A DNA stretch of 36,413 bases from contig JACRFG010000078.1 in assembly GCA_016234345.1 (NCBI GenBank), forward strand, positions 1 through 36,413, read 5' to 3'. The notes beneath the pieces are model-generated. The model saw nothing but the letters and a program-made list of their open reading frames with translations, ran no database searches and was not told where the DNA came from. Positions within the stretch are counted from its first letter, which is position 1; each line of letters begins with the position of its first letter. The translations under genes and the position numbers were made by a program. Of this stretch, positions 17,281-34,732 are shown piece after piece. Origin of the DNA: Candidatus Jorgensenbacteria bacterium. Lineage in GTDB: Bacteria; Patescibacteriota; Minisyncoccia; UBA6257; GWB1-50-10.

Positions 17281-17284
17281 ATCC

Positions 17285-17806
17285 ATGGATTGGGTGTCTT
17301 TTTTACAAAAATTCTTTTCTGCCCCGCAACTTAAGGCTTCATTCTTCGCCGCTAAGCTTATTTTTATTTTTTTAGATATCGTACTTGTTATTCTTTTTAT
17401 TTATGTTGCGCGTAAAGTAGCCGAGTTTCGGCCTAAACTAGAAGTCAAAATTAAAACAGGCAAACGGCAAGGGGTTGTACAGAAAAATCCGGTACTGATA
17501 AGGCAGTGGCAGGCAATTCTTAATAAATCTATAGCCGCGCCGCCGCAATCGCATATTCTTGGCATTATCGATGCAGATAAGTTTGTTGATGAGGTTTTGA
17601 AAAAAATGGGTATTAAAGGTGAACATATGGCTGATCGTTTGGAACGGATGAACACGTGGGATTTGAAATCTATTGATAAATTGTGGCAGGCCCATCGTGT
17701 CAGGAATGAATTAGTTCATCAACCCGACTTTGATATTTCTTCGGTCGATGTTAAAGAGGTTATGGAGATTTACGAATCTTTTTTAAAGGAAATTGGAGTT
17801 CTATAA
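17285..17806 (+). CDS. Hypothetical membrane-anchored protein (173 aa)
   Basis: It has a single N-terminal TM helix (FFAAKLIFIFLDIVLVILFIYVA). It starts 4 nt after the upstream stop, and the next gene starts 6 nt after its own stop. Confidence 0.65.
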   Translation: MDWVSFLQKFFSAPQLKASFFAAKLIFIFLDIVLVILFIYVARKVAEFRPKLEVKIKTGKRQGVVQKNPVLIRQWQAILNKSIAAPPQSHILGIIDADKFVDEVLKKMGIKGEHMADRLERMNTWDLKSIDKLWQAHRVRNELVHQPDFDISSVDVKEVMEIYESFLKEIGVL

Positions 17807-17812
17807 ACTATC

Positions 17813-19279
17813 ATGTCTCGTGGTTCTAAAATAAGACTAATCAAATATGCGCCGCCGCCGCCGGAACTTCCTATGTACGGTAAAATTAGTCCGGCCGACG
17901 CTTCATTTATCGGACGAACTAATTATGTCGCCGCATTGGAGGAGAAGAAGTATATTTTTGGTATCAAACGAGTTGATCGTCGCCGTCATGCTTATATCGT
18001 AGGTAAAAGCGGCGTTGGCAAATCGAAACTTTTGGAACTTATGATTAGACAGGACATCGCTTACGGTTATGGTTTTTGTCTTATTGATCCGCACGGTGAT
18101 GTGATTAATACCATACTGGATTTTGTGCCTGAATCGAGAGTCGATGATGTTGTAATTATTGATCCGGCCGATGCGGGTTATCCGGTATCGTTTAATCCGT
18201 TAGCTAACGTTGATCCACAATTTAAACATCAACTGACCCAAGGCTTGATCGAAGTTATGGAGAAACAGTTCGGCGCGAACTGGACGCCGCGGTTGGAACA
18301 CGTATTCCGCTTTACTTGTTTGGCTTTGTTGGATTATCCACATGCCACCATGCGGGGAATGATTTCCATGCTTACTGACCGTAATTACCGTCAGAAAGTC
18401 GTTGAGTATATTGAGGATGACATGGTGAAGCGTTTTTGGGCCATTGAATTCGCTGATTGGTCGGAGAAATTTGATACAGACGCTATTATCCCCCTTGTAA
18501 ACAAGCTTGGACAGTTTTTATCCGACCCGATGCTCCGGAATATCTTCGGTCAGAAAGAAAACAAGATTAATCTGGAAGAATTCATGAACCAACAGAAGAT
18601 CGTGCTTATAAACCTTTCTAAGGGCAGACTTGGTGAGGAAAACGCCAGTTTCTTCGGTTCCATGTTTATTACCAAGATAAAACAGGCCGGTATGGCCCGA
18701 GCCTCACTTTCCGAAAAAGAGCGCAATGATTTCTATCTTTATGTTGATGAGTTTCATAATCTTGTAACCGAAACCTTTGAAAATCTGCTTTCGGAGGCCA
18801 GAAAGTATGGTCTCTGTCTTATGGTGGCCCATCAGTATATGGGACAGCTTTTGCCGCGCGTTCAGGCATCGGTTTTGGGTAATATCGGCACTATTATTAT
18901 TTTTAGGGTTGGCGGTGAAGACGCGGTTAAATTAAAACCGGAGATGGCTCCAATTTTTGAAGTGAAAGATATGATTAACCTCGGAATGCAGGAATTCTAC
19001 ATTAAACTAACGATTGACGGAGAAACATACGATCCATTTTCAGCAGAGACTCTTAAGGTTTTGCCGCCCACACACACTTCATTAAGAGAGCGGATTATCG
19101 GAGAATCGCACCGGAAATATACTATTCCGGTTGATGCGGCCAAAAAGCTAATTACCGAAGAGGAAGCGACAATATTTAGAAGTGCTCAAGAGAAAGCCAT
19201 GATCACCGGAAAGAATTCCGCGGATAATAAGGGAGGAAAGGCCGCGGAAGAAGACAAAAACATCGAGCCACTCATATAA
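17813..19279 (+). CDS. VirD4/TraD/TraG-like (FtsK-HerA superfamily) P-loop ATPase, soluble form
   Basis: It has Walker A VGKSGVGKSKLL and Walker B FYLYVDEFHNL. These are followed by ARKYGLCLMVAHQYMGQL...GTIIIFRVGGEDA, which resembles the TraD/TraG C-terminal region of coupling proteins. I see no N-terminal TM helices. Confidence 0.75.
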   Translation: MSRGSKIRLIKYAPPPPELPMYGKISPADASFIGRTNYVAALEEKKYIFGIKRVDRRRHAYIVGKSGVGKSKLLELMIRQDIAYGYGFCLIDPHGDVINTILDFVPESRVDDVVIIDPADAGYPVSFNPLANVDPQFKHQLTQGLIEVMEKQFGANWTPRLEHVFRFTCLALLDYPHATMRGMISMLTDRNYRQKVVEYIEDDMVKRFWAIEFADWSEKFDTDAIIPLVNKLGQFLSDPMLRNIFGQKENKINLEEFMNQQKIVLINLSKGRLGEENASFFGSMFITKIKQAGMARASLSEKERNDFYLYVDEFHNLVTETFENLLSEARKYGLCLMVAHQYMGQLLPRVQASVLGNIGTIIIFRVGGEDAVKLKPEMAPIFEVKDMINLGMQEFYIKLTIDGETYDPFSAETLKVLPPTHTSLRERIIGESHRKYTIPVDAAKKLITEEEATIFRSAQEKAMITGKNSADNKGGKAAEEDKNIEPLI

Positions 19280-19398: not shown

Positions 19399-21162
19399 AT
19401 GAATCAACGAGAATCAAGAAAATGTCAAAACTGTCGACAAGAATTTTGGATTGAACCGGAAGACTTCACTTTTTACGAACGTATCAATGTTCCGCCGCCG
19501 ACCTGGTGTCCAGAGTGTCGGATGATACGACGGATGTCTTTTCGAAATGAGAGAACGCTTTACAGGCGAGAATGCAATTTATGTAAGAAAAATATTATCG
19601 CGATGTACGACTCAACTGCCCCATTCTCTGTTTTCTGTTATGAATGTTGGTGGTCTGATAAATGGGGTGCCGAGACATTTGAGCAAGATTATGATTGGAA
19701 TCGGCCGTTTCTTGAACAATTTAGAGAACTTCTTTTAAAAGTCCCTAAGATTGCATTAGTTCATTATCCGCCCAATACAGATGTTAACTACGCTAATTTT
19801 GTTGCTAAAGATCGCAATGTGTATCTTGCGTATTCCGTTGTTGAATGCGAAAACGTGTTCTATTCATATAGTGTTGATAAAAGCAAGGAAAGCTTTGACT
19901 GTCTATATTTGAAAGGTTCCGAATTTTGTTTCGAAAATACTGACAGCGAAAATAACTATAATTGTTCATATCTGTTTCGCTCCCGCGACTGTATTAATTC
20001 GTCATTTTTATTTGATTGCGCTAATTGTCAGAATTGCTTTATGTCTTCAAATCTTCGGAATAAGCAATTCGTATTTCGTGGACAGCAACTTAATAAGAAT
20101 TCTTATGAAGCCAAGCTACAAGAAGTTATTGCCGGAAGCTATGAAAGTTATGAAGAATATAGGACTGAGTTCAAAAATTTAATGCGGAGCTCTCTTCACA
20201 AGTTTGCAAATCTGGTTAAAACAACCAACTGCACCGGTGATAATATTGCTAATTCAAAGAACGTTCGTGGATCATTCGGTGTTTATAACGCTGAAAATGT
20301 AAAATATTCAATTCGAGCCCTTCGTGAGGTTAAAGATACGTATGATCTTTATGGCGGATTAGGAGAATTGCTTTATGAAGGAACAGTAACTGGGTGGGGT
20401 AGTTTTAAACTTTCTGTTTTTACATATGCAAGTGCCTCACACGACGCTTCATATATTGATTGGTGCCAGAATTGTTCATATCTATTAGGTTGCGCAGGAT
20501 TGCGTAATAAGCAGTACTGCATTTTGAACAAACAGTACTCCAAAGAGGAGTATGAAGCGCTCGTTCCCAAGGTTATCGAGCATATGAATGCGATGCCGTA
20601 TGTAGATATGCAGGGACGAGTTTATCGATACGGCGAGTTTTTTCCTCCGGACCTTTCGCCATTTGCCTATAATGAGACTATTGCGCAGGAGTATTTTTCT
20701 TTGACTAAAGATCAGGCATTTGTCCGAGGATGTCGGTGGCGAGATCCTGACGGTCGGGACTACCATATTACTAAAACATTTTATGAACTTCCCGATCACG
20801 TTAAAGATGCTGCTGACTCTATTGTGAATGAAGTGATTGGTTGTGCTCATGAAGGGAAGTGTAATGAGCAATGTACTACCGCATTTAAGATTATTCCTCA
20901 AGAATTGGCATTTTATAGAAAAATGAATCTTCCACTTCCACGTCTTTGTCCCAACTGTCGTCACTATGAACGTCTCGCACAGCGTAATCCTTTGAAACTC
21001 TGGCATCGAACATGCATGTGTGACTACAAGGTCCGTGAGAATGGCGGAACGCACCAACATCACCCAACAGGTCCATGTCCGAACGAATTTGAAACAAGTT
21101 ACGTTCCCGACCGACTAGAGGTCGTCTACTGTGAACCGTGCTATAACGCAGAAGTAGTTTAG
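19399..21162 (+). CDS. Cys-rich zinc-ribbon/repeat protein, array paralog 1 (587 aa)
   Basis: The N-terminus is CQNCRQEFWIEPEDFTFYERINVPPPTWCPECRMIRR...RNERTLYRRECNLCKK...FCYECWWSDKW. An internal cap reads CQNCSYLLGCAGLRNKQYCILNKQYSKEEYE. The C-terminus is LPLPRLCPNCRHYERLAQRNPLKLWHRTCMC...CPNEFETSY...VVYCEPCYNAEVV. I count about 32 Cys. Confidence 0.85.
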   Translation: MNQRESRKCQNCRQEFWIEPEDFTFYERINVPPPTWCPECRMIRRMSFRNERTLYRRECNLCKKNIIAMYDSTAPFSVFCYECWWSDKWGAETFEQDYDWNRPFLEQFRELLLKVPKIALVHYPPNTDVNYANFVAKDRNVYLAYSVVECENVFYSYSVDKSKESFDCLYLKGSEFCFENTDSENNYNCSYLFRSRDCINSSFLFDCANCQNCFMSSNLRNKQFVFRGQQLNKNSYEAKLQEVIAGSYESYEEYRTEFKNLMRSSLHKFANLVKTTNCTGDNIANSKNVRGSFGVYNAENVKYSIRALREVKDTYDLYGGLGELLYEGTVTGWGSFKLSVFTYASASHDASYIDWCQNCSYLLGCAGLRNKQYCILNKQYSKEEYEALVPKVIEHMNAMPYVDMQGRVYRYGEFFPPDLSPFAYNETIAQEYFSLTKDQAFVRGCRWRDPDGRDYHITKTFYELPDHVKDAADSIVNEVIGCAHEGKCNEQCTTAFKIIPQELAFYRKMNLPLPRLCPNCRHYERLAQRNPLKLWHRTCMCDYKVRENGGTHQHHPTGPCPNEFETSYVPDRLEVVYCEPCYNAEVV

Positions 21163-21165
21163 AAT

Positions 21166-21777
21166 ATGACCAAACAAATTATTCTTAAAGAAACAAAAAA
21201 GCCTTTCTATTTTTCAGAAAGCGATTTACCAATGTTTATTCATGGTATAGATAAGGCCGGAGCATCTTTGTTTTCAGTTGCGGTTGCTACGCAATTCTTT
21301 CTAAACGGTAAAAAGATTATTTTTTTCACGGCTTATCCGATGGCAAAAGAAGAGTTTTTGAGTCAGATAGCTGGTTCTGATAAAGAAAATAAAGTTTTCT
21401 ATTTGGAGCATTCAAAAAATATTACAGAAGCTTCTAATTTCAGCGCGATCATAGTCAAAAGTGGCGATTGGGAACTTTGTTTGACGGTTTTGAGAACTCT
21501 AAATGACGTAGGAGAGAGAATCATTTTTGTTAAAAATATAGAATCAATTCTCAAAAGAGAACTCTTTTCGGCTGTTAAGATGCATCATAAATTGATCTTT
21601 TCTGGCGATGTTGATAAAATTGGTTTTGCTGAAGAAATAATCGCATTTAATTTCAATACCAAAATTTTATTTTCTAAACCAAAAATAAATATTGGCATTG
21701 ATATTCCCATTTTGGATAAATATGTAGGTTTTGTCGTCGGACGTGAAAACGCGCTGGTTAAGTTAGATGATTTTTAA
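21166..21777 (+). CDS. Hypothetical protein (203 aa) embedded in the array
   Basis: It starts 3 nt after the paralog 1 stop and ends 2 nt before the paralog 2 start. It contains GIDKAGAS, which resembles a Walker A (GxxxxGK[ST]) with Lys replaced by Ala. No family was recognised. Confidence 0.6.
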   Translation: MTKQIILKETKKPFYFSESDLPMFIHGIDKAGASLFSVAVATQFFLNGKKIIFFTAYPMAKEEFLSQIAGSDKENKVFYLEHSKNITEASNFSAIIVKSGDWELCLTVLRTLNDVGERIIFVKNIESILKRELFSAVKMHHKLIFSGDVDKIGFAEEIIAFNFNTKILFSKPKINIGIDIPILDKYVGFVVGRENALVKLDDF

Positions 21778-21779
21778 AT

Positions 21780-23558
21780 ATGAACTCAGAAATCAAACAA
21801 TGCCAAAATTGTAAACAAAACTTCGTCGTCGAACCGGATGATTTTAATTTTTATGAAAAGATAAAAGTGCCAGCGCCCACGTGGTGCCCGGAATGCCGTA
21901 TGATTCGCCGACTCGTTTGGCGGAACGAAAGAGCGCTCTACAAGCGGAAATGTGATTTGTGTGGTGAGATGAAGATATTGATGTATGCATCTGAAAAACC
22001 CTATAAAGTATATTGTTACGAATGTTGGTGGTCGGATAAGTGGAGTGCTTTGGATTACGGTCGAGATTACGATTTCAACCGGCCGTTTTTTGAGCAATTT
22101 GCCGAGTTATTAAAGACCGTACCTCGACCGGGCGTGATTAAGCAGGGGAATCATGTTGAGAGTGAATACACAAATCGGGTGACCAATATGAGGCATTGTT
22201 ATTTGGTTTATGGAACAGCGATTGCTGAATATTGTAGATATGGCGTGTGGTTAAACAGTTCAAAAGAATGCATGGATGGTTACAATGTTCAAAAATCAGA
22301 ACGTTGCTACGAATGTATTGATTGTTTCCAATGCTACGGTCTTGCTTTTTCAGAGGAATGCAATAATTCTGTGGATTCGTGGTTTCTTTTAAACTGCAAT
22401 AATTGCCAGAATTGTTTTGGTTGCGTGAATCTTCGTAATAAGTCCTATTGTATTTTCAATAAGCAGTATACAAAAGAAGAGTATCAAAAGATTATTGCGG
22501 GCTATCAGCTTGGAAGCGCGATATTCGTTGAGGGTATGCGTTCCCGATTCAATGATTTTAAAAAGAGATTTATCGTGCCGGCGATTGTAACTCATCATAG
22601 TATAAATATGAGCGGTAATTGGATTGAGAATTCAAAAAATATTTTTAGATCATTTACAATCGCAAACGTTGAAGAGGGTCGATATAGTTACGCTGTTTTT
22701 GATGCGAAAGATATTATGGATTACACATTTTGGGGTGCTACCGCTGAGCTTGTGTTTGAGGCCGTGAATTGCGGTATTCAGGCGTCGGATCTTCAGTTTG
22801 TGAATGAGTGTTGGAATCAAGCAATTGGTATGCGATATTCCATGAATTGTCATAGTTCACATAATCTTTTCGGCTGTATCGGAGTTAAAAATTCGGAATA
22901 TTGCATTTTGAATAAGCAATATCCAAAAGCAGAATATGAACAAATAATAGAAAAAATACGTGGCCAGATGGATAAAACTCTTTATGTAGATAAAAAAGGA
23001 AGAAAATATGTATACGGTGATTTTTTCCCTCTCGAGCTATCTCCCTTTGCATATAACGAGACTCTGGCGCAAGAATATTTCCCTATTCATAGAGAGACCG
23101 CGTTAAAAATGGATTATCCTTGGAAAGAGCTAGACGACAGAAATTATCAGATAACGTTGGATGCAGCAGCTCTTCCGGATAATATAAACGAGGTTCATGA
23201 TTCGGTTGTGAACGAAATAGTGAGCTGTGACCATGCTGGAAAGTGTAATCAACAATGCACGACCGCCTTCCGAATTACAGAAGAAGATTTACGCATGTAT
23301 CGCGCGGCAAAACTTCCTCTTCCGCGTTTATGCCCTAATTGCCGGCACTATGAGCGTTTAGCAAAAAGGAATCCTCTTAAGCTGTGGCATCGTATTTGTC
23401 AGTGTGGGGGAAGCATATCAGAGAACGGTTCGTATAAAAATTTATCTGAGCATTTTCATACTAATAGCCACTGTCCTAACGAATTTGAAACTTCCTACGC
23501 TCCCGACCGGCCAGAAATAATCTATTGCGAGCAATGTTATAACGCTGAGGTAGTATAA
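21780..23558 (+). CDS. Cys-rich zinc-ribbon/repeat protein, array paralog 2 (592 aa)
   Basis: It has the same architecture as paralog 1: CQNCKQNFVVEPDDFNFYEKIKVPAPTWCPECRMIRR, two caps (CQNCFGCVNLRNKSYCIFNKQYTKEEYQ and LFGCIGVKNSEYCILNKQYPKAEYE), and the tail IIYCEQCYNAEVV. Confidence 0.85.
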   Translation: MNSEIKQCQNCKQNFVVEPDDFNFYEKIKVPAPTWCPECRMIRRLVWRNERALYKRKCDLCGEMKILMYASEKPYKVYCYECWWSDKWSALDYGRDYDFNRPFFEQFAELLKTVPRPGVIKQGNHVESEYTNRVTNMRHCYLVYGTAIAEYCRYGVWLNSSKECMDGYNVQKSERCYECIDCFQCYGLAFSEECNNSVDSWFLLNCNNCQNCFGCVNLRNKSYCIFNKQYTKEEYQKIIAGYQLGSAIFVEGMRSRFNDFKKRFIVPAIVTHHSINMSGNWIENSKNIFRSFTIANVEEGRYSYAVFDAKDIMDYTFWGATAELVFEAVNCGIQASDLQFVNECWNQAIGMRYSMNCHSSHNLFGCIGVKNSEYCILNKQYPKAEYEQIIEKIRGQMDKTLYVDKKGRKYVYGDFFPLELSPFAYNETLAQEYFPIHRETALKMDYPWKELDDRNYQITLDAAALPDNINEVHDSVVNEIVSCDHAGKCNQQCTTAFRITEEDLRMYRAAKLPLPRLCPNCRHYERLAKRNPLKLWHRICQCGGSISENGSYKNLSEHFHTNSHCPNEFETSYAPDRPEIIYCEQCYNAEVV

Positions 23559-23595
23559 TATAGACAGCAAAGGTCGAAAGTTTAATAGCAAATAC

Positions 23596-23901
23596 ATGAT
23601 TTTTATATACACAACTTCTCCGAATCTTGAAGAAGCCAAAAAATTAGCTGAGGTTATTATCGATAAAAAGCTTGCGAGCGCCGTCAATTTATGGCCGACC
23701 CAGTCAATTTATATGTGGAAGGGAGAAAAACGAGAGGGGGAGGGGGCTGTTCTTTTTATACGGACGCTTGAGTCAAAGCTTCAGGAGATTGAAGATTTGA
23801 TTGGTACTCATAACATGCACGGCATTCCCTGCGTGGCTGCAGTCGATGTACGGCGTATCAACCGTCACTATAAAGAGCATCTTGTAGAGTGCGTGGGTTA
23901 G
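23596..23901 (+). CDS. cutA: Divalent-cation tolerance protein CutA
   Basis: At 101 aa it fits the CutA1 pattern: IYTTSPNLEEAKKLAEVIIDKKLASAVNLWP.QSIYMWKGE...LFIRT...H.MHGIP...Y.EHL. This corresponds to the A-C-V-N / S-x-Y-x-W-x-G / K-T / H-x-Y-x-x-P motifs. Confidence 0.8.
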   Translation: MIFIYTTSPNLEEAKKLAEVIIDKKLASAVNLWPTQSIYMWKGEKREGEGAVLFIRTLESKLQEIEDLIGTHNMHGIPCVAAVDVRRINRHYKEHLVECVG

Positions 23902-23948
23902 TTTTCTAATCCGCCTTATATTAAGGGCAGTGTTTTTATTTTTAAATT

Positions 23949-25622
23949 ATGACCAATATTCAGACAATACATTGTCGCAGCTGTAAGAATTCATTTGTTG
24001 TAGGACCAGACGATATTGCGTTTTACGCAAAAATGGACGTGTCGATACCGACGCTTTGTCCTGAATGTCGAATGCGTTGGAAATTTTTATGGCGTAACGA
24101 ACGAACGCTCTATAAACGCATGTGCGATCTTTGTAAGCGTTCGGTTGTGACCATGCATCATCCGCGAATGCAATTTCCGGTATACTGTTATGAATGCTGG
24201 TTTTCAGACAAATGGGATCCGTTTAGTTATAGCCGATCGTACGACATCAGTCGTCCTTTTTTTGAACAGCTTGGTGAACTTATACAGCAAGTTCCTAAAC
24301 AAGCTATGTATAGTTCTCCTGAAAGCGGACCGAATATAAATAGTGAATATACAAATTTTGCCGGAGGTAACAAGGATTGTTATCTTATTTTTAATTCCGG
24401 CCCTAAAAATGAGAATTGCGCATACGCGCGTGGGCTTATGCAGTGTCGTGATGTTTTTGATATGTATTATGGTTCGGACGTTGAGCGTAGTTATGAAGGC
24501 GTGAATATTCAGAAGAGCACTGGTGTTGGCTATGGCAAGGATGTGCTTGAGTGTTTGGATTCATGGTTTCTTTTGAACTGCACGGGTTGTCAATATTGTT
24601 TTGGCTGTGTGAATTTGCGCCACAAGTCGTATTATTTTTTTAACGAACCGCTTTCAAAAGATGAGTGGATGAGACGAGTATCAGAAGTATTGGGTAGTTA
24701 TAAAAAAATGGAAGCTGCGAGGAAACAATTTGAAGATTTCGGTCTTAAATTTCCGCGACGAGAACATAGTAATATGAAATCAATAAATTGTATCGGCGAC
24801 TATATATTTGAATCAAAAAATTGCTATGCATGTTTTGAAGTTTCATTTGCCGAAGATCTGCGATACGTTTTTGCGACTAAGCGTACCAAGGACAGCTTTG
24901 ATTTAGTTGGTCATGGCCGTGAATCTGAGTTGTTGCTTGAAGGCGTTGGTGTTGGGTGGTCGTCACGGGTTATCGGTTCGTGGCGCGTTGAGCGTTCTCA
25001 TGACATAGAATATTGTCTTGGTACTCGGACGAGTGAGCACTGTATAGGTTGCGATGGTTTGAAAAACGCCAAGTACTGCATTTTAAACAAACAGTACTCT
25101 GAAGCAGAGTATAAAAAATTACGTACTCACATTGTAAATGAGTTAAAAAATAAAGAGCTGTACGGACTTTTCTTGCCACCCGAAATATCTCTTTTTGCCT
25201 ATAACGAAACAATAGGTCAGGATAATTTACCGTTGAGTCGAGAGGAGGCCGCACGTTACGGATTTCGGTGGGAAGACGATATTCCACGCACCAAAGATCA
25301 AGAAACCATGCAGCCGCAACAAATTCCCGATCACATTAAAGATACTCTCGATTCAATGCTGAACGAAGTTTTACGATGCGTGAGTTGTGGTTATAACTAT
25401 CGTTTGATAAAGCCAGAGCTCGAATTCTATCGAAAGCTGCTAATCCCGATTCCCCGGCAGTGTTTTAATTGTCGGTTTCTTGATCGTATCAAACGTCGTG
25501 GCCCGATGAAACTTTATGAACGTCAGTGTGGTAAATGCAAAAAATCAATCAAAACTACTTATGCTTCTGATCGTCCCGAAATCGTCTACTGTGAACAGTG
25601 CTATAACGCGGAAGTTATATGA
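23949..25622 (+). CDS. Cys-rich zinc-ribbon/repeat protein, array paralog 3 (557 aa, short C-terminal variant)
   Basis: It shows the family N-terminus (CRSCKNSFVVGPDDIAFYAKMDVSIPTLCPECR...) and the caps. The C-terminal module uses plain CxxC pairs (CVSCGYNYRLI...CFNCRF...CGKCKKSI...YCEQCYNAEVI) and lacks the CMC...HxHH...CPNEFETSY insert. Confidence 0.85.
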   Translation: MTNIQTIHCRSCKNSFVVGPDDIAFYAKMDVSIPTLCPECRMRWKFLWRNERTLYKRMCDLCKRSVVTMHHPRMQFPVYCYECWFSDKWDPFSYSRSYDISRPFFEQLGELIQQVPKQAMYSSPESGPNINSEYTNFAGGNKDCYLIFNSGPKNENCAYARGLMQCRDVFDMYYGSDVERSYEGVNIQKSTGVGYGKDVLECLDSWFLLNCTGCQYCFGCVNLRHKSYYFFNEPLSKDEWMRRVSEVLGSYKKMEAARKQFEDFGLKFPRREHSNMKSINCIGDYIFESKNCYACFEVSFAEDLRYVFATKRTKDSFDLVGHGRESELLLEGVGVGWSSRVIGSWRVERSHDIEYCLGTRTSEHCIGCDGLKNAKYCILNKQYSEAEYKKLRTHIVNELKNKELYGLFLPPEISLFAYNETIGQDNLPLSREEAARYGFRWEDDIPRTKDQETMQPQQIPDHIKDTLDSMLNEVLRCVSCGYNYRLIKPELEFYRKLLIPIPRQCFNCRFLDRIKRRGPMKLYERQCGKCKKSIKTTYASDRPEIVYCEQCYNAEVI

Positions 25623-27409
25623 CAAAATCAGAAGAAAGGGAGTGTCAAAATTGTAAGCGAGAGTTTATTTTTGAGCCAGACGACTTTGAATTTTATGAGA
25701 AAATGCGGGTGCCACCACCAACGTGGTGTCCGCTATGTCGTTTACAACGCCGTCTTATTTGGAGAAACGAGCGCAATCTTTCACGCCGGAGCTGCGATCT
25801 TTGCAAAAAAGAAATCCTATCAATGTATGGAAATGAGGTGAAATTTCCTGTGTATTGTCCCGCGTGTTGGAAGGGTGATGCATGGGATTCTCTTTCTTAT
25901 GGGAGAGAATACAATTTTTCGAAACCTTTTTTTGAACAATATCGATCACTTATGGATGAAGTGCCTCGGCCGAGTTTAAGCCACAATAATACGAATGTGA
26001 ACTGTGATTACGCGAACATGATTCAAGACGTGAAAAACGTCTACTTTTCATTTTCGGTGATTTGGGAATCAGAAGATGTGTACTATTCAAACAATGTGGA
26101 TCGATCTCGAAGCATAGTAGATTCTATGAATGTGTCGGAGAGTGAAATGGTATATGGCTCGATGGGAAGCGTTAAGAATTACCGATCTCGATACTGTTAT
26201 TGGTCTTCCGGGTGCGTTGATTGTACGTTTATGCTCGATGCGAGCGGGTGTTCTAATTGCTTCGGGTGCGTAGGATTGCGGAATAGGCAGTACTGCATTT
26301 TCAACGAAGAGTACTCGAAAGAGGATTACAAAAAGACAGTAGCATCTTTTGATATTGGCAGTTACAAAAATTTTCTCGATTTTCAGAGACGATTTGAAGA
26401 ATTAGCGTTAAAATTTCCCCGGAAGTATGCGCGCATTATAAACAGTGTTCGTTCAACTGGAGATGAGATGCTTAATTGCAAAAACGTGCGTTATGGATTC
26501 AATGTTTCTGGTGTTGAAGACGGTAAATACTTGTTTCGCTGTCCGGGGACAAAGCAAGCAATGGACGCTTGTCATTGTGGTAAAGCAGAGTTTGTGTATG
26601 AACACGGTATGGGAGGATCAAGTCCTGGCCTCGAATTAAGATTTATTGTGAACGGGATGCCGGGGCAGCACCACGTGACTTACAGCGATTACTGCGGTTC
26701 ATCATCGTATCTTTTCGGTTGTGTGGGGGTTAAAAATAAAGAATACTGCATTTTGAACAAGCAATACTCGAAAGAAGCATTTGATGAGCTTGTTCCGCGC
26801 ATTACGAGGCATATGGATCAGGAGCCGTATATCGATGACCGCGGCCGAGTGTACAAATATGGAGAATTTGTACCTCCCGCGTTTTCTCCCTTTGCATACA
26901 ATGAGTCGGTGATTCAAGAATATGTTCCTTTGACAAAAGAGCGTGCCGAGGAGTTGGGGTACGGGTGGAAGGTAAAAGAAAAGAAAGGGTATAACATTTC
27001 TGTTGGATCACATAAAATTACGGATCACATTAAAGACGTTAATGATTCAATAACGACTCAAATAATCGGATGTTCGAATGAGGGAAGGGAAGAGGGGTGC
27101 ACCACCGCATTTCGGATAGTTCCTGAGGAATTAGCTTTTTATCGGCGCATGGAAATACCATTGCCGAGGTACTGTCCTAATTGTCGTCATGCCACTCGCC
27201 TTAAAAAACGTAATCCCGTAGAACTTTGGCACAGAAATTGTATGTGTAATTCTTCGGAGAGTAGTCGTGTAACAAGTATCTTGTACATAAATACAAGAAA
27301 GCATTTTCACGGAAATGATCCGTGCCCGAATCAATTTGAAACATCATATGCTCCGGATCGTAACGAAACCGTTTATTGCGAAACTTGTTACAATAGCGAA
27401 GTAGTTTAA
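25619..27409 (+). CDS. Cys-rich zinc-ribbon/repeat protein, array paralog 4 (596 aa)
   Basis: Its start overlaps the paralog 3 stop (ATGA). Family motifs are present throughout, and the tail is TVYCETCYNSEVV. Confidence 0.85.
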   Translation: MTKSEERECQNCKREFIFEPDDFEFYEKMRVPPPTWCPLCRLQRRLIWRNERNLSRRSCDLCKKEILSMYGNEVKFPVYCPACWKGDAWDSLSYGREYNFSKPFFEQYRSLMDEVPRPSLSHNNTNVNCDYANMIQDVKNVYFSFSVIWESEDVYYSNNVDRSRSIVDSMNVSESEMVYGSMGSVKNYRSRYCYWSSGCVDCTFMLDASGCSNCFGCVGLRNRQYCIFNEEYSKEDYKKTVASFDIGSYKNFLDFQRRFEELALKFPRKYARIINSVRSTGDEMLNCKNVRYGFNVSGVEDGKYLFRCPGTKQAMDACHCGKAEFVYEHGMGGSSPGLELRFIVNGMPGQHHVTYSDYCGSSSYLFGCVGVKNKEYCILNKQYSKEAFDELVPRITRHMDQEPYIDDRGRVYKYGEFVPPAFSPFAYNESVIQEYVPLTKERAEELGYGWKVKEKKGYNISVGSHKITDHIKDVNDSITTQIIGCSNEGREEGCTTAFRIVPEELAFYRRMEIPLPRYCPNCRHATRLKKRNPVELWHRNCMCNSSESSRVTSILYINTRKHFHGNDPCPNQFETSYAPDRNETVYCETCYNSEVV

Positions 27410-27416
27410 TAAAAAT

Positions 27417-27710
27417 ATGAAATTCAATGTTCCGAAATCGCAATATAATCTCATAAGCATTGTTCGTGGCGTGGGATATCGGCCGCTTGGATATACTCAG
27501 GGGGGGGAGTTGAACTGCGTAAGGCCTCTCGGTGCGGACTATCCGAGGTTTCACCTCTATATTAGAGAAGGAAGCGAGAGTTTTATGTTTAACCTTCATC
27601 TCGATCAAAAGAGACCTTCGTATCAGGGCTCTACTGCTCATAGTGGTGACTACAACAGCGATATTATTAAAAGTGAAGCTTCTAGGATTAGAGGAATCAT
27701 CGGAATATGA
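27417..27710 (+). CDS. Hypothetical protein (97 aa) embedded in the array
   Basis: It starts 7 nt after the paralog 4 stop, and its own stop overlaps the paralog 5 start (ATGA). The sequence reads ...YPRFHLYIREGSESFMFNLHLDQKRPSYQGSTAHSGDY.... No family was recognised. Confidence 0.55.
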   Translation: MKFNVPKSQYNLISIVRGVGYRPLGYTQGGELNCVRPLGADYPRFHLYIREGSESFMFNLHLDQKRPSYQGSTAHSGDYNSDIIKSEASRIRGIIGI

Positions 27711-29428
27711 ATATAGAGACGAAAACCTGTCAAAATTGCAAACAGAACTTCGTTATCGAACCGGATGATATCAATTATTATCAAAAATTTAGTCTTTCTT
27801 TTCCTAGAATGTGTCCGCTTTGTCGGGCACAGCGTCGCCTCTCGTTTAGGAACGAAAGATATTTATACAAAAGAAACTGCGATCGTTGCAAGAAATCGAT
27901 CATTTCAATGTATAGTCCAAACAAACCCTATCCTGTTTGGTGCCCGGATTGCTGGTTTTCTGATGAGTGGAACCCGCTTGATTATGGAAGAGAGTATGAC
28001 CGTTCTAAACCTTTTTTTGAGCAGATGAATGAATTATGGAAAAAAGTTCCTAAGGTAGCCCTCATTTACGTACGAAGTGTAAATTCTGAATATATTAATA
28101 TTTCCGCAGACAACAAGAATTGTTACATGATTGTTGAATCATCCAACAATGAGGATTGCGCCCATTGTTATTGGATTCAGGTTTGCAAGGATTGTGTCGA
28201 TGTTTCTTTTTCCCATCAAACCCAGTTTTCTTATGAAAGTGATGACTCTTATGATTCATATCGTCTTTTTTATAGCAAGGGTTGCTATAATTGTTTGGAC
28301 AGTTATTTTCTTTTTGACTGTCGTGGTTGTTCAAATTGCATTGGTTGCGTTAACCTTCGCAATAAGCAATACCATATTTTCAATAAACCTTACTCAAAAG
28401 AAGATTATGAAAAGTTTTTAAGAGAAGTGCGTTTAGACTCTTATAATGGGGTAGAGTTATTAAGAGAAAAATTTAAAAATTTTCTTATCGCTCAACCAAG
28501 AAAATATTCAGAAATTTATAACGCCTCTCGTTCAACCGGCAATTACATAACTAATGCTAAAAATTGTCGGATCTGTTTTCACGCCTATGATGCTGAGGAT
28601 AATGCTTATAGTGTTCATGTTTGGCGTGGTGCTAAAGGAATTATGGATTGTGATACTTCGGGACGCGGCGCCGAATTTAACTACAATTCTTTAAATGCCG
28701 GTCTTGCTGCCTCTTACTGTATCTGTACGAGTGTTTGCTGGGGATCTTCTTTCGCTGAATACTCTTTTTATTGCCATAATTGCAATAACGTTTTCGGTTC
28801 TGTCGGATTAAGAAAGAAAAACTATTGTATTCTGAACAAGCAATATTCTAAGGATGAATATGAAAAATTAATGAAAGAAATCGTTAATAGCTTGAGCAAA
28901 GACCATGGTTATGGGGATTTTTTCCCGCTTTGGATGAGCCCTTTTGGTTATAATGAATCGTCTGCAATTGATCAGTTCCCGCTTGCTAAAGCGGAAGCGA
29001 TAAATCAAGGCTTTACGTGGGAAGATTATCCGCGCGGCACTTATGGGAAAGAGATGGTGAAATGGAGCGAAGTGCCAGATTCCATTCGGGATGTGGGGCA
29101 TTTGGATGTGCTAAATGTGATTTTCGCGTGCGAATCGTGTAAGAAAAATTATCGTATTATCCCGTACGAGTTCGAGTTCTATAAGAAGCTCGATACTCCT
29201 TTGCCGCGCCTCTGTCCTGATTGTCGGCATACTCGTCGTTTCACTGCGCGTGGGCCAAATCGTTTATGGCATCGCCAATGCATGTGTGACTATGCTGTTT
29301 ATTCGAATACCGTTACTCATAAACATCATTCAACCGGCCGTTGTCCCAATGAATTTGAAACTTCTTATGCGTCAGATAGGAAAGAGATTGTGTATTGCGA
29401 ACAATGTTATAACAGTGAAGTAGTATGA
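27707..29428 (+). CDS. Cys-rich zinc-ribbon/repeat protein, array paralog 5 (573 aa)
   Basis: Family motifs are present. The C-terminus is a hybrid: a plain CESCKKNY ribbon, followed by CMCDYAVYSNTVTHKHHSTGRCPNEFETSY and IVYCEQCYNSEVV. Confidence 0.85.
   Translation: MNIETKTCQNCKQNFVIEPDDINYYQKFSLSFPRMCPLCRAQRRLSFRNERYLYKRNCDRCKKSIISMYSPNKPYPVWCPDCWFSDEWNPLDYGREYDRSKPFFEQMNELWKKVPKVALIYVRSVNSEYINISADNKNCYMIVESSNNEDCAHCYWIQVCKDCVDVSFSHQTQFSYESDDSYDSYRLFYSKGCYNCLDSYFLFDCRGCSNCIGCVNLRNKQYHIFNKPYSKEDYEKFLREVRLDSYNGVELLREKFKNFLIAQPRKYSEIYNASRSTGNYITNAKNCRICFHAYDAEDNAYSVHVWRGAKGIMDCDTSGRGAEFNYNSLNAGLAASYCICTSVCWGSSFAEYSFYCHNCNNVFGSVGLRKKNYCILNKQYSKDEYEKLMKEIVNSLSKDHGYGDFFPLWMSPFGYNESSAIDQFPLAKAEAINQGFTWEDYPRGTYGKEMVKWSEVPDSIRDVGHLDVLNVIFACESCKKNYRIIPYEFEFYKKLDTPLPRLCPDCRHTRRFTARGPNRLWHRQCMCDYAVYSNTVTHKHHSTGRCPNEFETSYASDRKEIVYCEQCYNSEVV
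27725..27762 (+). repeat. 38-nt tract identical to 29443-29480 (5' ends of paralogs 5 and 6)
   Basis: The tract acctgtcaaaattgcaaacagaacttcgttatcgaacc is found identically in both genes. Confidence 0.9.
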
Positions 29429-31197
29429 ATTCGGAAACCAAGACCTGTCAAAATTGCAAACAGAACTTCGTTATCGAACCCGAAGATTTTCAGTTCTATG
29501 AGAAAATAAAGGTTCTGCAGCCCACGTGGTGCCCGGAGTGTCGGATGATAAGGCGAATGATTATTCGTAATGAAAGAGTGTTGTATCGGAGACCATGTAA
29601 GGGATTGGGGCATAACGAAGAAGTAATTTCTATTTATTCCGCTGATAAGCCGTTTAATGTTTACGATCAGAAGTTGTGGTGGTCTGACGAGTGGGATTCA
29701 TTGCAATTTGGTAAAACATACGACTTTTCTCGTCCATTTTTTGAACAATTCAAGGAATTATGGGAGACGGTACCTCTTTTGGCGCTGTCAAACTCTAATG
29801 CCATAAACAGCGACTATTGTAATGTCGCCGATCAAAGCAAGGATTCCTATATGACCTCAGGTTCCTTCAAAATAGAGAACACCCATTATTCTAATCGGGT
29901 GTATACAGTAAAAGATTCTATGGATTTATATGTTGGTTTCAGAAATGAACTTTGTTACGAATGCGTTCACTGTTCGGACTGTTATCGGGTTGTTTATGGT
30001 AAGCAATGTATCGGTTGCACCGATTCTTATTTTCTCTATGATTGTCGCAATTGTTCTAATTGCTTCGGTTGCACTAATTTGAGAAATAAAAATCACTGCA
30101 TTTTTAACAAGCAATACACCAAAGAAGATTATTTGAAGAAAATTTCGGAATTTAATCTTGGGAGTGCGAAACAGATCGAAAAGTTAAGTAAAGAATTTAA
30201 TAATGTATATTTTAAATCCATTCATAAATACGCGACGATTTTAAAATCGGTTAATGTTATTGGTGATAATGTTAGCGATGCCAAGAATTGCAAAGTTTGT
30301 TTCGATATAACCGAAGGCGGTGAAGATTGTAAATATGTTCATTGGGGAGGGTTGCAGACAAAAGATGTCTATGATGGTGGACCTGGTGTCGGGATTATAG
30401 ATCTTTCATATGAGATTGTTGATACTGGGTTGCAAGGCTCTAATATCGCTTTCACTAATGTTGTTTATGGATCTCATAATGTTCGCTATGCTCTTTTTTG
30501 CCATAATTCATCGAATATTTTCGGTTGTATCGGGTTGAGAAATAAGAATTATTGCATTTTGAATAAACAGTACTCGAAAGAAGAATACGAAGAGTTAATA
30601 CCTAGGGTTATAAAACACATGAATCATATGCCATATATTGATGAGCGGGACAGACAATATCGGTATGGTGAGTTTTTTCCACCCTCCATTTCGCCGTTTT
30701 GTTATAACGAAAGCATTGCGCAGGATTATTTTCCGCTTACTAGAGAAAAAGCATTAGAGAGGGGATATAAATGGAGAGAGTTGGATGAACGTCACTATAA
30801 AACAACAAAGAAAGCAGTCGACCTTCCCGACAACATAAAAGAAGTGACCGATGAAATTCTCAAAGAAATTATCGAGTGCGTGCATAAAGGAGAATGCAAT
30901 GATGGTTGTACAATAGCTTTCAAGATAATGCCAGCAGAGCTCCAATTTTATCAACGTCTTAATTTACCGTTACCACGATTTTGTTTTAATTGTCGGCATG
31001 TCAGACGGTTACAGGAAAGGAATCCATTAAAATTGTGGCATCGTGGATGTATGTGTGATTATGAGGTTTATCCGAACACGAGACGCCATAAACATCATTT
31101 GGATGGTCGGTGTCCCAATGAATTTGAAACGAGTTATTCTTCCGAACGAAAAGAGATCGTGTATTGTGAACAATGTTATAACGCGGAAGTAGTATGA
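29425..31197 (+). CDS. Cys-rich zinc-ribbon/repeat protein, array paralog 6 (590 aa, GHNEE variant)
   Basis: ATGA overlaps occur at both ends. The second N-terminal ribbon is replaced by PCKGLGHNEEVISIYS...VYDQKLWW. The rest matches the family, and the tail is IVYCEQCYNAEVV. Confidence 0.85.
   Translation: MNSETKTCQNCKQNFVIEPEDFQFYEKIKVLQPTWCPECRMIRRMIIRNERVLYRRPCKGLGHNEEVISIYSADKPFNVYDQKLWWSDEWDSLQFGKTYDFSRPFFEQFKELWETVPLLALSNSNAINSDYCNVADQSKDSYMTSGSFKIENTHYSNRVYTVKDSMDLYVGFRNELCYECVHCSDCYRVVYGKQCIGCTDSYFLYDCRNCSNCFGCTNLRNKNHCIFNKQYTKEDYLKKISEFNLGSAKQIEKLSKEFNNVYFKSIHKYATILKSVNVIGDNVSDAKNCKVCFDITEGGEDCKYVHWGGLQTKDVYDGGPGVGIIDLSYEIVDTGLQGSNIAFTNVVYGSHNVRYALFCHNSSNIFGCIGLRNKNYCILNKQYSKEEYEELIPRVIKHMNHMPYIDERDRQYRYGEFFPPSISPFCYNESIAQDYFPLTREKALERGYKWRELDERHYKTTKKAVDLPDNIKEVTDEILKEIIECVHKGECNDGCTIAFKIMPAELQFYQRLNLPLPRFCFNCRHVRRLQERNPLKLWHRGCMCDYEVYPNTRRHKHHLDGRCPNEFETSYSSERKEIVYCEQCYNAEVV
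29443..29480 (+). repeat. 38-nt tract identical to 27725-27762
   Basis: See the partner copy at 27725-27762. Confidence 0.9.
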
Positions 31198-32939
31198 TTT
31201 CTAAAACCCCACAATTTGATAAAGCCTTAGATAAGGTTTTGCATGAACTTATCCCACATGCTCGTGAATGCGATCAGCGGGATATTTCCGAGTATTGCGA
31301 GAAAAAGTTCGAAATTACAGATCAGGATATTGAGTTTTTGAAGATCCTTCGTGTTCCTCCTCCAATACAATGCCCAACCTGCCGGCGGCAAAGACGCTTT
31401 TCATTTATGAATTGGACACGTCTTTTTAAGCGTCCTTGTAATGCTCCAGGACATAATGAAGAAATCATTTCTTCCGTTTCGACATCATGTCCATTCCCTG
31501 TCGTTGATATTCCATACTATCAATCGAGCTATTTCGATCCTACACGCATGGGGTTTGTATCTGACATAGGAAAATCGTTTTGGTCACAATTTTATGAACT
31601 CCGTAGACGCGTGCCCTTACCGGCAATGGTACAAGAACCATCGAATGTGAATGCCGAATATTCAATGGGTGGACGCAACTCAAAGAATGTATATTATGCG
31701 ACTGGCGTTTTCAATTCGGAGGATATTCTCTATGCCAATGGTATTAGAGATTGCCGCGAGTGTATGGATATAATTTTTGTGACCAAAGCCGATCGTGTGT
31801 ATGAGGCGATCAGGTCGGAAAATATTGTTAATTCTTCATATATTTATTTCTCCGAAGAATGCATTGATTCAATGTTTCTTTTTGATTGTCGGAATTGCAT
31901 CAATTGTTTTGGATGCGTAAATCTCCGCAATAAGAGTTTTTGCTTTTTTAATGAGCAGCTTTCCCGTGAGGCTTATTTGGAAAAAATTAAAGCGTTTGAT
32001 ATGGGCGATCGAAAAACTCTTCGTTCTTTGCTCGACCGTTTTTGGTCGTTTGTGAAGTCTCGGCCGATTCGAGCGAGCCAAAATTTTTCTTCTGAAAGGG
32101 TAAACGGCGTTAGTATTTCTCAATCTCGAGATTTGGACTACGTTATCGCCGCAGAAAATTCCGGGCATGTGCGTCACTCCGAAGACATTTTAGGACATCA
32201 TGATTCCATGGATGTTACCGTGTCCGGAGGCCATTCCCACCACCTGTATGAAACATCAAATGTCGGTTCTCAATCTTCTGTTACTAAGTTTTCGTTTACA
32301 TCAAAATATATAACCGACTCCGAATTCCTTTTAAATTGTAAGCGTTGTAAAAACTGTTTTGGGTGTGTCGGCCTTGAGGACAAATCATTTTATATATTGA
32401 ATATCCCTTATAAGCCGGACGAGTATTGGAGCACCGTTGATAAGATAAAACTCGCTATGCTTGGGCGGGGAGAGTACGGGATGGGTGTTCCAATATCCTT
32501 TTCACCCTATGCATACAATATAACTCTGGCAAACGTTCCGTTTCCTCTTGCGTCGGAAGCAGTTACCCGACTTCACGGATACTCGCAGGGTGAAACAGAG
32601 AGTAATGTTAAAAACATGCCGACTTTGAAGTCAGATGAGGTGCCGCGTTCCATTGATGATGTATCTGATACGATTATTCAAACAGCAGTTCTATCGGAGC
32701 ATTCCGGCCGGCCCTTTAGAATCGTTCCGAAGGAGCTTGAGTTTTACCGAAGACATCGTCTATCTATTCCACTTTCCCATCCTTATGAGCGTATGGATGC
32801 ACGGACAAGAATCATGGGTTCCTACAAAGCGTATAGGGCAGTTTGTTCTCATTGTGGAAAGAATATTCAGAGCGCATTTGATCCGGCTGAAGGCTTTACT
32901 CTTTATTGCGATATGTGTTATCAGAATGAAGTATTATGA
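31194..32939 (+). CDS. Cys-rich zinc-ribbon/repeat protein, array paralog 7 (581 aa, most divergent)
   Basis: It has an extended, divergent N-terminus (ECDQRDISEYCEKKFEITDQDIEFLKILRVPPPIQCPTCRRQRR) and the GHNEE variant (PCNAPGHNEEIISSVS). Caps are retained (CINCFGCVNLRNKSFCFFNEQ, CKNCFGCVGLEDKSFYILN). The tail is LYCDMCYQNEVL. Confidence 0.8.
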   Translation: MISKTPQFDKALDKVLHELIPHARECDQRDISEYCEKKFEITDQDIEFLKILRVPPPIQCPTCRRQRRFSFMNWTRLFKRPCNAPGHNEEIISSVSTSCPFPVVDIPYYQSSYFDPTRMGFVSDIGKSFWSQFYELRRRVPLPAMVQEPSNVNAEYSMGGRNSKNVYYATGVFNSEDILYANGIRDCRECMDIIFVTKADRVYEAIRSENIVNSSYIYFSEECIDSMFLFDCRNCINCFGCVNLRNKSFCFFNEQLSREAYLEKIKAFDMGDRKTLRSLLDRFWSFVKSRPIRASQNFSSERVNGVSISQSRDLDYVIAAENSGHVRHSEDILGHHDSMDVTVSGGHSHHLYETSNVGSQSSVTKFSFTSKYITDSEFLLNCKRCKNCFGCVGLEDKSFYILNIPYKPDEYWSTVDKIKLAMLGRGEYGMGVPISFSPYAYNITLANVPFPLASEAVTRLHGYSQGETESNVKNMPTLKSDEVPRSIDDVSDTIIQTAVLSEHSGRPFRIVPKELEFYRRHRLSIPLSHPYERMDARTRIMGSYKAYRAVCSHCGKNIQSAFDPAEGFTLYCDMCYQNEVL

Positions 32940-32945
32940 TGAATC

Positions 32946-34730: not shown

Positions 34731-34732
34731 TC

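Follow-up and report, generated by a model that had tools for sequence, protein, structure and literature searches.

The narrowest beta-helix geometry known, with coils of 12 residues, is to our knowledge described only from small secreted insect antifreeze proteins. In one of these, TmAFP of the beetle Tenebrio molitor, a secreted protein of 84 residues, the inward-facing positions of the 12-residue coil are Cys2, Ser5, Cys8 and Ala11, positions 2 and 8 are bonded by one obligatory disulfide per coil, and ice is bound by a Thr-x-Thr face. The coil of the left-handed beta-helix, in turn, comprises 18 residues in three 6-residue sides. Among zinc-binding folds, the treble clef uses the zinc knuckle of a beta-hairpin for the first pair of ligands and the N-terminal end of an alpha-helix for the second, while the zinc ribbon holds both pairs on the knuckles of two beta-hairpins within a three-stranded sheet and contains no ligand-bearing helix. 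Here, these folds are compared with the product of an open reading frame (ORF) located on a 36,413-nucleotide stretch of DNA from Candidatus Jorgensenbacteria bacterium (Patescibacteriota; assembly GCA_016234345.1, contig JACRFG010000078.1), the whole of which is referred to as the window. The gene is the second of nine paralogs and serves as the exemplar of its family. An earlier note had described its product as a duplicated, Cys-laddered solenoid flanked by zinc ribbons. The build that emerges, a twin beta-solenoid capped by zinc fingers, is real and unusual, and we assign a probability of about 80% to the overall architecture, i.e., zinc-finger pairs at both ends and twin antiparallel solenoids of 12-residue coils between them, a value derived from structure prediction and coevolution rather than from experiment.

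From the N-terminus, the order of the domains is finger 1 and finger 2, a helix, solenoid 1, helices, solenoid 2, a helix, a linker domain and, finally, fingers 1' and 2'. Their positions are as follows, with conservation of the presumed zinc ligands given over 499 family members:

21780-23558, forward strand: exemplar ORF (paralog 2), open, 592 aa
21780..21935, forward strand: N-terminal finger 1, zf_Tbcl-like, residues 1-52; ligands C8, C11, C36, C39, 94-96% conserved
21936..22064, forward strand: N-terminal finger 2, zf_Tbcl_2-like, residues 53-95; ligands C58, C61, C79, C82
22065..22118, forward strand: connector helix h1, residues 96-113 (PFFEQFAELL); helix 103-113 in the model, aligned to residues 247-261 when the two blocks are compared
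22119..22472, forward strand: solenoid 1, residues 114-231, about nine coils of 12; cap 1 at residues 206-235 (22395-22484)
22473..22571, forward strand: helical connector h2, residues 232-264, with helices 232-240 and 247-261; the most variable region, with the top column entropy of all regions
22572..22925, forward strand: solenoid 2, residues 265-382, coils of 12 residues, 13 in residues 311-350; cap 2 at residues 357-386 (22848-22937)
22926..23213, forward strand: helix h3 and conserved linker domain, residues 383-478, with no counterpart in the first half; PYxDxxGRxYxYGEFFP...PFAYNETxAQ
23214..23381, forward strand: C-terminal finger 1, residues 479-534; ligands C483, C493, C518, C521, 88-98% conserved
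23382..23558, forward strand: C-terminal finger 2, residues 535-592 and the stop codon; ligands C540, C565, C583, C586, 95-98% conserved

The symmetry of this arrangement is apparent from profile comparisons with hhalign, for which sub-alignments were cut from a 118-member family alignment. The proposal that the N- and C-terminal modules follow one template is confirmed, since residues 1-95 align to residues 475-592 with a probability of 99.4% (E 6.3e-22), both CxxC pairs being among the 78 aligned columns, and all the motif strings quoted in its support are present in the 592-aa translation. The duplication of the middle region into two capped blocks is equally evident: block 1 (residues 96-245) aligns to block 2 (residues 246-400) over 136 columns with a probability of 99.9% (E 1.5e-31), while four control pairs (N-terminal module with block 1, C-terminal module with block 2, and the linker with either the N-terminal module or block 1) yield E values of 0.02-0.5. 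The domain order is A-B-B'-A' and not A-B-A-B. The near-identical caps and the linker motif recognized in the exemplar prove to be a family-wide consensus, namely NCxxCFGCVNLRNKxYCIFNEQYxKEEY for cap 1, LFGCVGLRKKQYCILNKQYxKEEY for cap 2 and PYxDxxGRxYxYGEFFPxxxxPFAYNETIAQExFP for the linker. The linker is partly deleted in paralogs 3, 5 and 7, and its near-invariant residues are Y412, G413, P417, Y425, N426 and E427. Helix h1 is the counterpart of the helix preceding solenoid 2. It is tied to helix h3 by the pairs F99-Q396 and Y97-I393 in a mean-field direct coupling analysis (DCA) of 499 family sequences (effective number, Meff, about 455), from which the coupling counts given below were taken among the top 400.

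When the fingers are compared one by one, finger 1 of the N-terminal module matches finger 1 of the C-terminal module (E 5e-18) and the second fingers match each other (E 7e-10), while the profile comparison of finger 1 with finger 2 is not significant; therefore, the module consists of two different fingers duplicated as a unit. These fingers are not the zinc ribbons that had been proposed. In the AlphaFold2 model of the exemplar, built from an alignment of 118 sequences, the first CxxC is placed on a hairpin knuckle and the second begins a helix at all four sites (DSSP assignment), and the only Pfam matches are to zf_Tbcl and zf_Tbcl_2, both labelled 'probable treble clef'; together, these results identify double treble-clef fingers. 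In the predicted N-terminal module, C8/C11 lie between strands 4-7 and 14-17 and C36/C39 open helix 37-45, as is characteristic of treble clefs, and in its second finger C58/C61 lie between strands 54-57 and 64-67 and C79/C82 open helix 80-83. In the predicted C-terminal module, C518/C521 open helix 519-529 and C583/C586 open helix 584-591, and the order of secondary-structure elements is identical in both modules. Each terminal module is, according to this model, a pair of non-identical four-Cys fingers of the treble-clef type, one zf_Tbcl-like and the other zf_Tbcl_2-like.

The Pfam matches themselves are found in relatives of the exemplar. Five paralogs of the window score 15.1-20.7 bits against zf_Tbcl (PF13451) over residues ~6-45, below its gathering threshold of 24 bits, whereas the threshold of zf_Tbcl_2 (PF23477), 27 bits, is exceeded by paralog 7 (29.2 bits, last 35 aa), paralog 9 (28.8 bits, residues 60-93) and three homologs (~33 bits). 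The fingers of the exemplar align to those of its sibling paralogs, and finger 1 of the family displays the pattern CxxC...F.[IV]...FY...P..C..CR shared with zf_Tbcl. Whereas zf_Tbcl and zf_Tbcl_2 are short and mostly stand-alone domains, the family fuses one of each, twice, around a 300-residue twin solenoid. Other Patescibacteria contain ORFs of ~100-130 aa that match only the N-terminal module, over residues 3-99 (G029:C5:48916-49173 and G273:C2:160236-160508); therefore, stand-alone versions of the module exist.

Conservation differs among the four sites. In the second N-terminal finger, C58 is retained in 85% of the members and C61, C79 and C82 in only ~61%, being lost as a set. Paralogs 6 and 7 (29425-32939) are devoid of three of the four Cys residues of this finger, a loss extending to ~38% of the family, and the finger is therefore dispensable. 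In the C-terminal module, the first finger has an insert with H485 and C489, present in 60% of the family, and the second an insert with C542, H558 and H560, so that long-form members, including the exemplar, have five additional potential ligands; the tail YCEQCYNAEVV forms the ligand-bearing helix 584-591. From the conserved ligand sets, we infer four structural Zn sites per chain, and the insert residues of the C-terminal module could provide a fifth.

Between the modules, the blocks had been thought to consist of degenerate units of roughly 20 residues. The couplings indicate instead coils of 12 residues, lengthened to 13 in a section of block 2, whose rows are by turns of a K-N-C and an S-E-x-Y type; the apparent ~20-aa units are thus pairs of coils, and this alternation explains the earlier impression. 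In block 1, 26 couplings fall at a separation of 12, and the strongest form a chain (124-136, 127-139, 139-151, 151-163, 160-172, 172-184, 184-196, 187-199, 199-211, 205-217, 208-220, 214-226). Block 2 has 11 pairs at separation 12 and 9 at separation 13, and its chain, running from 273 to 373, proceeds in steps of 12, then of 13 (311-324-337-350) and then of 12 again. Minor peaks occur at separation 6, and no hairpin-type pattern (i+j=constant) is observed within either block. Consequently, the coils, about nine per block, stack in parallel. The idea of a Cys-laddered solenoid core is supported by these i to i+12/13 couplings, by the occurrence of Cys at every third residue and by the AlphaFold model, which reaches a predicted local distance difference test (pLDDT) value of 88 and a predicted template modelling score (pTM) of 0.90 and forms beta-bridges every 3 residues through block 1. 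Profile self-alignment of each solenoid reveals no significant internal repeat (E 0.01-0.02); it was coevolution alone that brought out the periodicity.

The solenoids resemble TmAFP (PDB 1l1i/1ezg) and related beetle antifreeze proteins in their parallel 12-residue coils with four inward positions at every third residue. In the family, positions 2, 5, 8 and 11 are occupied by Cys or other small residues and are rich in Cys and Ser, and Cys occurs essentially only at these positions of the 12-residue rows, where block 1 attains frequencies of up to 95% in its last coil; most interior Cys residues have been lost from solenoid 2. These residues are swapped singly for Ser, Leu, Val or Gly, their pairwise phi correlation is at most 0.41, and neither an even-number bias in their totals per chain nor all-or-none sets can be detected. 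Given the single replacements, the weak correlation and the absence of parity, they form neither obligate disulfides nor all-or-none metal sites; both obligate disulfides and a ladder of metal quartets were considered and are rejected by the co-occurrence and parity tests. We infer that the interior Cys residues mainly serve as small side chains filling the core of a protein that is intracellular. The quartet C206/209/212/215 of the last coil, 85-95% conserved, is the only candidate metal site of the solenoid core and may perhaps act as one. The family departs from TmAFP in several respects: the protein is cytoplasmic and its Cys residues are replaceable without parity, so that the obligatory i,i+6 disulfide is missing; two antiparallel solenoids are capped by helices and zinc fingers; no sequence homology is found; and the Foldseek match to 1l1i is not significant (E 8.9, TM-score 0.26).

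The relative placement of the domains can be read from the couplings between them. Pairs linking the two solenoids (114-368, 116-355, 135-333, 147-320, 204-266 and 217-265) have sums i+j of ~467-483, and this near constancy means that the solenoids lie side by side and antiparallel. The N-terminal module packs against solenoid 2 and the linker, with I42-I436, L45-L429 and V46-L418 as contacts to the latter, and the C-terminal module packs against solenoid 1. The two interfaces are related by symmetry: when the top 20 pairs between the N-terminal module and solenoid 2 are transferred to their symmetry mates, 4/20 lie at or above the 99th percentile (P ~1e-6), which is reached by 0.4% of all pairs between the C-terminal module and solenoid 1, and 6/20 lie at or above the 95th (P ~2e-5). 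Moreover, the Arg-Asp pairs R40/R44-D314 are mirrored by R522/R526-D166; R40, D166, D314, R522 and R526 are invariant in the nine paralogs, and R44 is conserved in at least 90% of the 118-sequence alignment. The chain is predicted to be one compact body with pseudo-two-fold symmetry and not a fibre, and the pTM of 0.90 fits this arrangement.

With the full model, the top Foldseek matches, which include GlmU, LpxD and gamma-carbonic anhydrase, are all beta-helices of the left-handed class (GlmU, LpxD, LpxA, gamma-carbonic anhydrase), as would be expected of a solenoid core. Their TM-scores are only 0.05-0.12 and their E values at least 0.03, and the coupling period of the family is 12/13 instead of 18. 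Neither a Pfam Hexapep match nor a hexapeptide motif, an acyltransferase site or evidence of trimers is found in the family protein. The pentapeptide-repeat beta-helix, with its 20-residue coils of four pentapeptides, was likewise discarded, as there are no couplings at separation 20 and no Pfam match. The six weak matches of the middle region are likewise beta-helices, among them VexL, AlgE4, NosD and TmAFP.

Several observations weigh against the architecture as set out here. Modelled alone, the solenoids are predicted with much lower confidence (pLDDT 72). Neither the full model, searched against PDB and BFVD, nor the solenoid-only model, searched against PDB, finds anything at E <= 0.001 with Foldseek; the best E values are 0.03 for the full model and 2.9 for the middle region, with TM-scores below 0.3. 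The exemplar itself has no Pfam match at E up to 1, PF13451 and PF23477 included, the Zn sites are putative, being read from the conservation of ligands only, and a metal ladder inside the solenoids is unsupported.

The family to which the exemplar belongs is large, comprising at least 8,000 clusters at 90% identity and 5,336 clusters at 50% identity. Its named members are nearly all annotated as 'hypothetical protein' in Parcubacteria-type lineages, with 'putative phage protein' and 'Zn ribbon nucleic-acid-binding protein' as exceptions. Searches with the exemplar against Pfam, NCBIfam and PADLOC retrieve no family, a profile search of all PDB sequences yields no match at E up to 1, the 300-residue core lies outside every Pfam and NCBIfam model, and no description of the solenoid family was found in the literature. 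Of 301 genomes sampled evenly across the phylum, 19 match the family at E <= 1e-10, of which 15, the genome of the window included, contain full-length copies, nearly always several. The family is patchily distributed in Patescibacteria and multi-copy, the number of copies ranging from one (G256) through about eleven in the source genome to ~30 candidates elsewhere. When 92 copies from 11 genomes are placed in a tree, the paralogs of the window fall into cross-genome orthogroups with 98-100% support, which indicates that they are old and individually maintained; a recent lineage-specific expansion is rejected by the same tree. Array order is only partly conserved across genomes. Judging from its sequences, the family is cytoplasmic: no signal peptide or transmembrane (TM) segment is found in the 499 members, hydropathy exceeds 1.6 over any stretch of 19 residues in only 2/499, and the first finger starts at residue 8.

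In the window, the family genes and the genes associated with them are arranged as follows:

17813..19279, forward strand: soluble ATPase of VirD4/TrwB-like type, 488 aa, immediately preceding the array; PF10412 (E 1e-10), DUF87, TraG-D_C
19399..36412, forward strand: array of nine paralogs, starting at 19399, 21780, 23949, 25619, 27707, 29425, 31194, 32946 and 34706/34733
21166-21777, 23596-23901 (cutA) and 27417-27710: unrelated small genes embedded in the array

The paralogs, all on the same strand, are 30-49% identical to the exemplar. Stop and start codons overlap by 4 nt between paralogs 3/4, 5/6 and 6/7 and between the 97-aa ORF (27417-27710) and paralog 5 (27707-27710), and other gaps measure 2-7 nt; the embedded ORFs of 203 and 97 aa likewise lie within a few nt of the adjacent paralogs or overlap them by as little. 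The embedded ORF at 21166-21777 encodes 203 aa, has no family match and no tblastn match in any of 79 related loci, and looks lineage-specific. The cutA gene at 23596-23901 encodes CutA1 (PF03091, E 2e-20) and adjoins family genes in 7/79 related loci, including one in a distant Staskawiczbacteria genome (L002). The source genome has 0.91 Mb, is 92% complete and carries about eleven family copies, equivalent to ~2% of its DNA. The array is flanked by housekeeping genes (uvrA, tdk, uvrC, secD, secF), and a gene for a P-type cation ATPase is also present in the window. The gene at 14774-15793 encodes a protein with sigma-70 region 4 (PF04545) and HARE-HTH (PF05066), devoid of sigma regions 2/3, and the order secD-secF followed by this gene upstream of the family is conserved in 6-12 related loci. 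A phage or plasmid origin of the array was considered and is rejected because tblastn finds no match in 50,697 phage and 72,556 plasmid records and because the flanks are housekeeping genes.

The array begins 119 nt downstream of a trio of genes encoding a membrane protein, a single-pass protein and the VirD4-like ATPase. Ahead of the ATPase gene, 15862-17806 encodes proteins of 472 and 173 aa, with gaps of 4 and 6 nt, for which no significant match exists in Pfam, NCBIfam or PADLOC. Among 79 family loci, homologs of these two proteins lie beside the family in 14/79 and 12/79, respectively, and an ATPase homolog lies at most 10 kb from a family gene in 26/79, across many lineages. VirD4-like ATPases as such are common in the phylum, being found in 299 of the 301 genomes with about two each, in agreement with the 5,713 VirD4-like homologs reported from 2,918 Patescibacteria genomes, of which 148 are near virB4 and whose role was left open (PMC12102498). 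The ATPase next to the array resembles VirD4, TrwB and TraD in matching TrwB_AAD_bind, TraG-D_C and DUF87, and it belongs among these approximately two-per-genome genes similar to type IV coupling proteins (T4CP). Nevertheless, it differs from VirD4, TrwB and TraD in having no TM segment of its own, in its distance from virB4 and in representing an extra subclade, which is almost confined to genomes that carry the solenoid family. When 299 genomes are ranked by similarity of their ATPases, ranks 2-16 are taken by 14 of the 15 other carrier genomes, a set in which 14 have full-length copies and G142 has fragments. Moreover, carriers of the family have 3-4 ATPase copies instead of about two, while non-carriers of the same class have only more distant ATPases. 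A second ATPase copy of the source genome, encoded on a different contig (G000:C29:9061-10293), is more typical.

What the family does can be proposed only tentatively. The zinc modules, together with a conserved face of the solenoids, would hold the body together, and one exposed solenoid face, made of coil positions 9-12 and 1, differs between ancient orthogroups, so that the paralogs would constitute a fixed panel of binding specificities working with the dedicated VirD4-like hexameric ATPase encoded alongside. The sequence data that suggest this include a between-group entropy of ~1.1 in the solenoids versus 0.44-0.58 in the zinc modules, and the behaviour of the variable face, whose position 10 is the same within groups and differs between them, both in a sample biased towards relatives of paralog 2. 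Such a paralog-specific binding panel partnered with a dedicated ATPase is a plausible working proposal for which we nevertheless see rather less than an even chance. In a more specific and distinctly more speculative form, the family and the extra ATPase subclade, possibly with the two small membrane proteins encoded upstream, would be an undescribed ATP-driven cytoplasmic machine in which the ancient paralogs act as a fixed set of adaptors, the variable face of each picking a different macromolecular client for the motor. Four points count against the proposal: two thirds of the 79 loci contain no ATPase within 10 kb; the complete 0.7-Mb genome G284 keeps an ATPase 75% identical to that of the window and has no family member, while its congener G256 has one copy; the link to the ATPase consists of neighbourhood and co-occurrence only, in lineages that are not phylogenetically independent; and the entropy sample is skewed as stated.

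Four other explanations have to be considered, all of them unlikely to different degrees. Firstly, the family could bind nucleic acids, with the Arg-rich finger helices contacting DNA or RNA, the solenoids serving as a rigid spacer and the ATPase acting as a VirD4/FtsK-like DNA translocase loaded or directed by the family proteins. Treble-clef fingers often bind nucleic acids, T4CPs such as TrwB are DNA-dependent ATPases, the basic stretch CRxxRRxxxRNERxLYKR is conserved in both modules, and the module has local structural matches to phage 'zinc-ribbon domain' proteins and HNH nucleases. However, several of the conserved Arg residues are explained by the intramolecular salt bridges to invariant solenoid Asp residues described above (R40/R44-D314 and R522/R526-D166), no nuclease or other catalytic motif is present, and the neighbourhood is free of genes specific to DNA metabolism, which makes this explanation unlikely.

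Secondly, the nine to eleven translationally coupled and anciently diverged proteins could be subunits of one large cytoplasmic complex or scaffold. This would account for the 4-nt stop/start overlaps and the short gaps between the other genes, for the orthologs that each paralog has in other genomes with 98-100% support, and for surface positions conserved group by group. A hetero-oligomer of this kind is nonetheless hard to reconcile with a copy number that varies from one in G256 to ~30 candidates, or with an array order that is kept only in part, and it appears somewhat less probable than binding to nucleic acids.

Thirdly, the family proteins could be exported cargo or effectors whose C-terminal tail is recognized by the VirD4-like ATPase, which would unfold them and push them across the membrane, e.g., toward the host of the episymbiont. 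The extreme C-terminus is indeed highly conserved, but this tail is the ligand-bearing helix 584-591 (C583/C586) of the last treble-clef finger, and the structure therefore already accounts for its conservation. The position of the array 119 nt downstream of the trio, the recurrence of the ATPase near the family and its co-occurrence with it would also fit export, as would the fact that only 148 of the 5,713 VirD4-like genes of Patescibacteria, the role of which is open, are near virB4 (PMC12102498). In contrast, a compact body with four or more putative Zn sites and a pTM of 0.90 would be a poor translocation substrate. Neither a signal peptide nor a TM segment occurs in the family, no channel component is encoded in the window, the paralogs form old and conserved orthogroups and are not evolving fast in the manner of effectors, and G284 retains the ATPase without the family. 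Export thus seems highly improbable.

Finally, a store or buffer in which Cys-lined cores and fingers sequester Zn, Cu or Fe would explain cutA (PF03091) inside the array and in 7/79 related loci, the many copies, a Cys content with a median of 36 per chain (6.2%), the 85-95% conserved quartet C206/209/212/215 and the P-type cation ATPase of the window, yet it has the slimmest prospects of all, given that the interior Cys residues are buried and singly replaceable with no all-or-none sets, that solenoid 2 has lost most of them, that cutA is absent from 72/79 loci and that such a function would not call for nine ancient orthogroups, each conserved in its own right and variable at the surface.

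These observations extend the narrowest known beta-helix geometry to a large, intracellular, zinc-finger-capped body that is pseudo-symmetric. Patescibacteria are ultra-small bacteria with genomes of ~1 Mb, and yet the eleven or so family copies of the source genome take up ~2% of its DNA. Moreover, the family is a concrete and testable candidate for the partner of one subgroup of VirD4-like ATPases in Patescibacteria, whose role was left open (PMC12102498). If the adaptor machine proposed above proved true, it would provide a function for some of the thousands of T4CP homologs of the phylum that are not linked to virB4.

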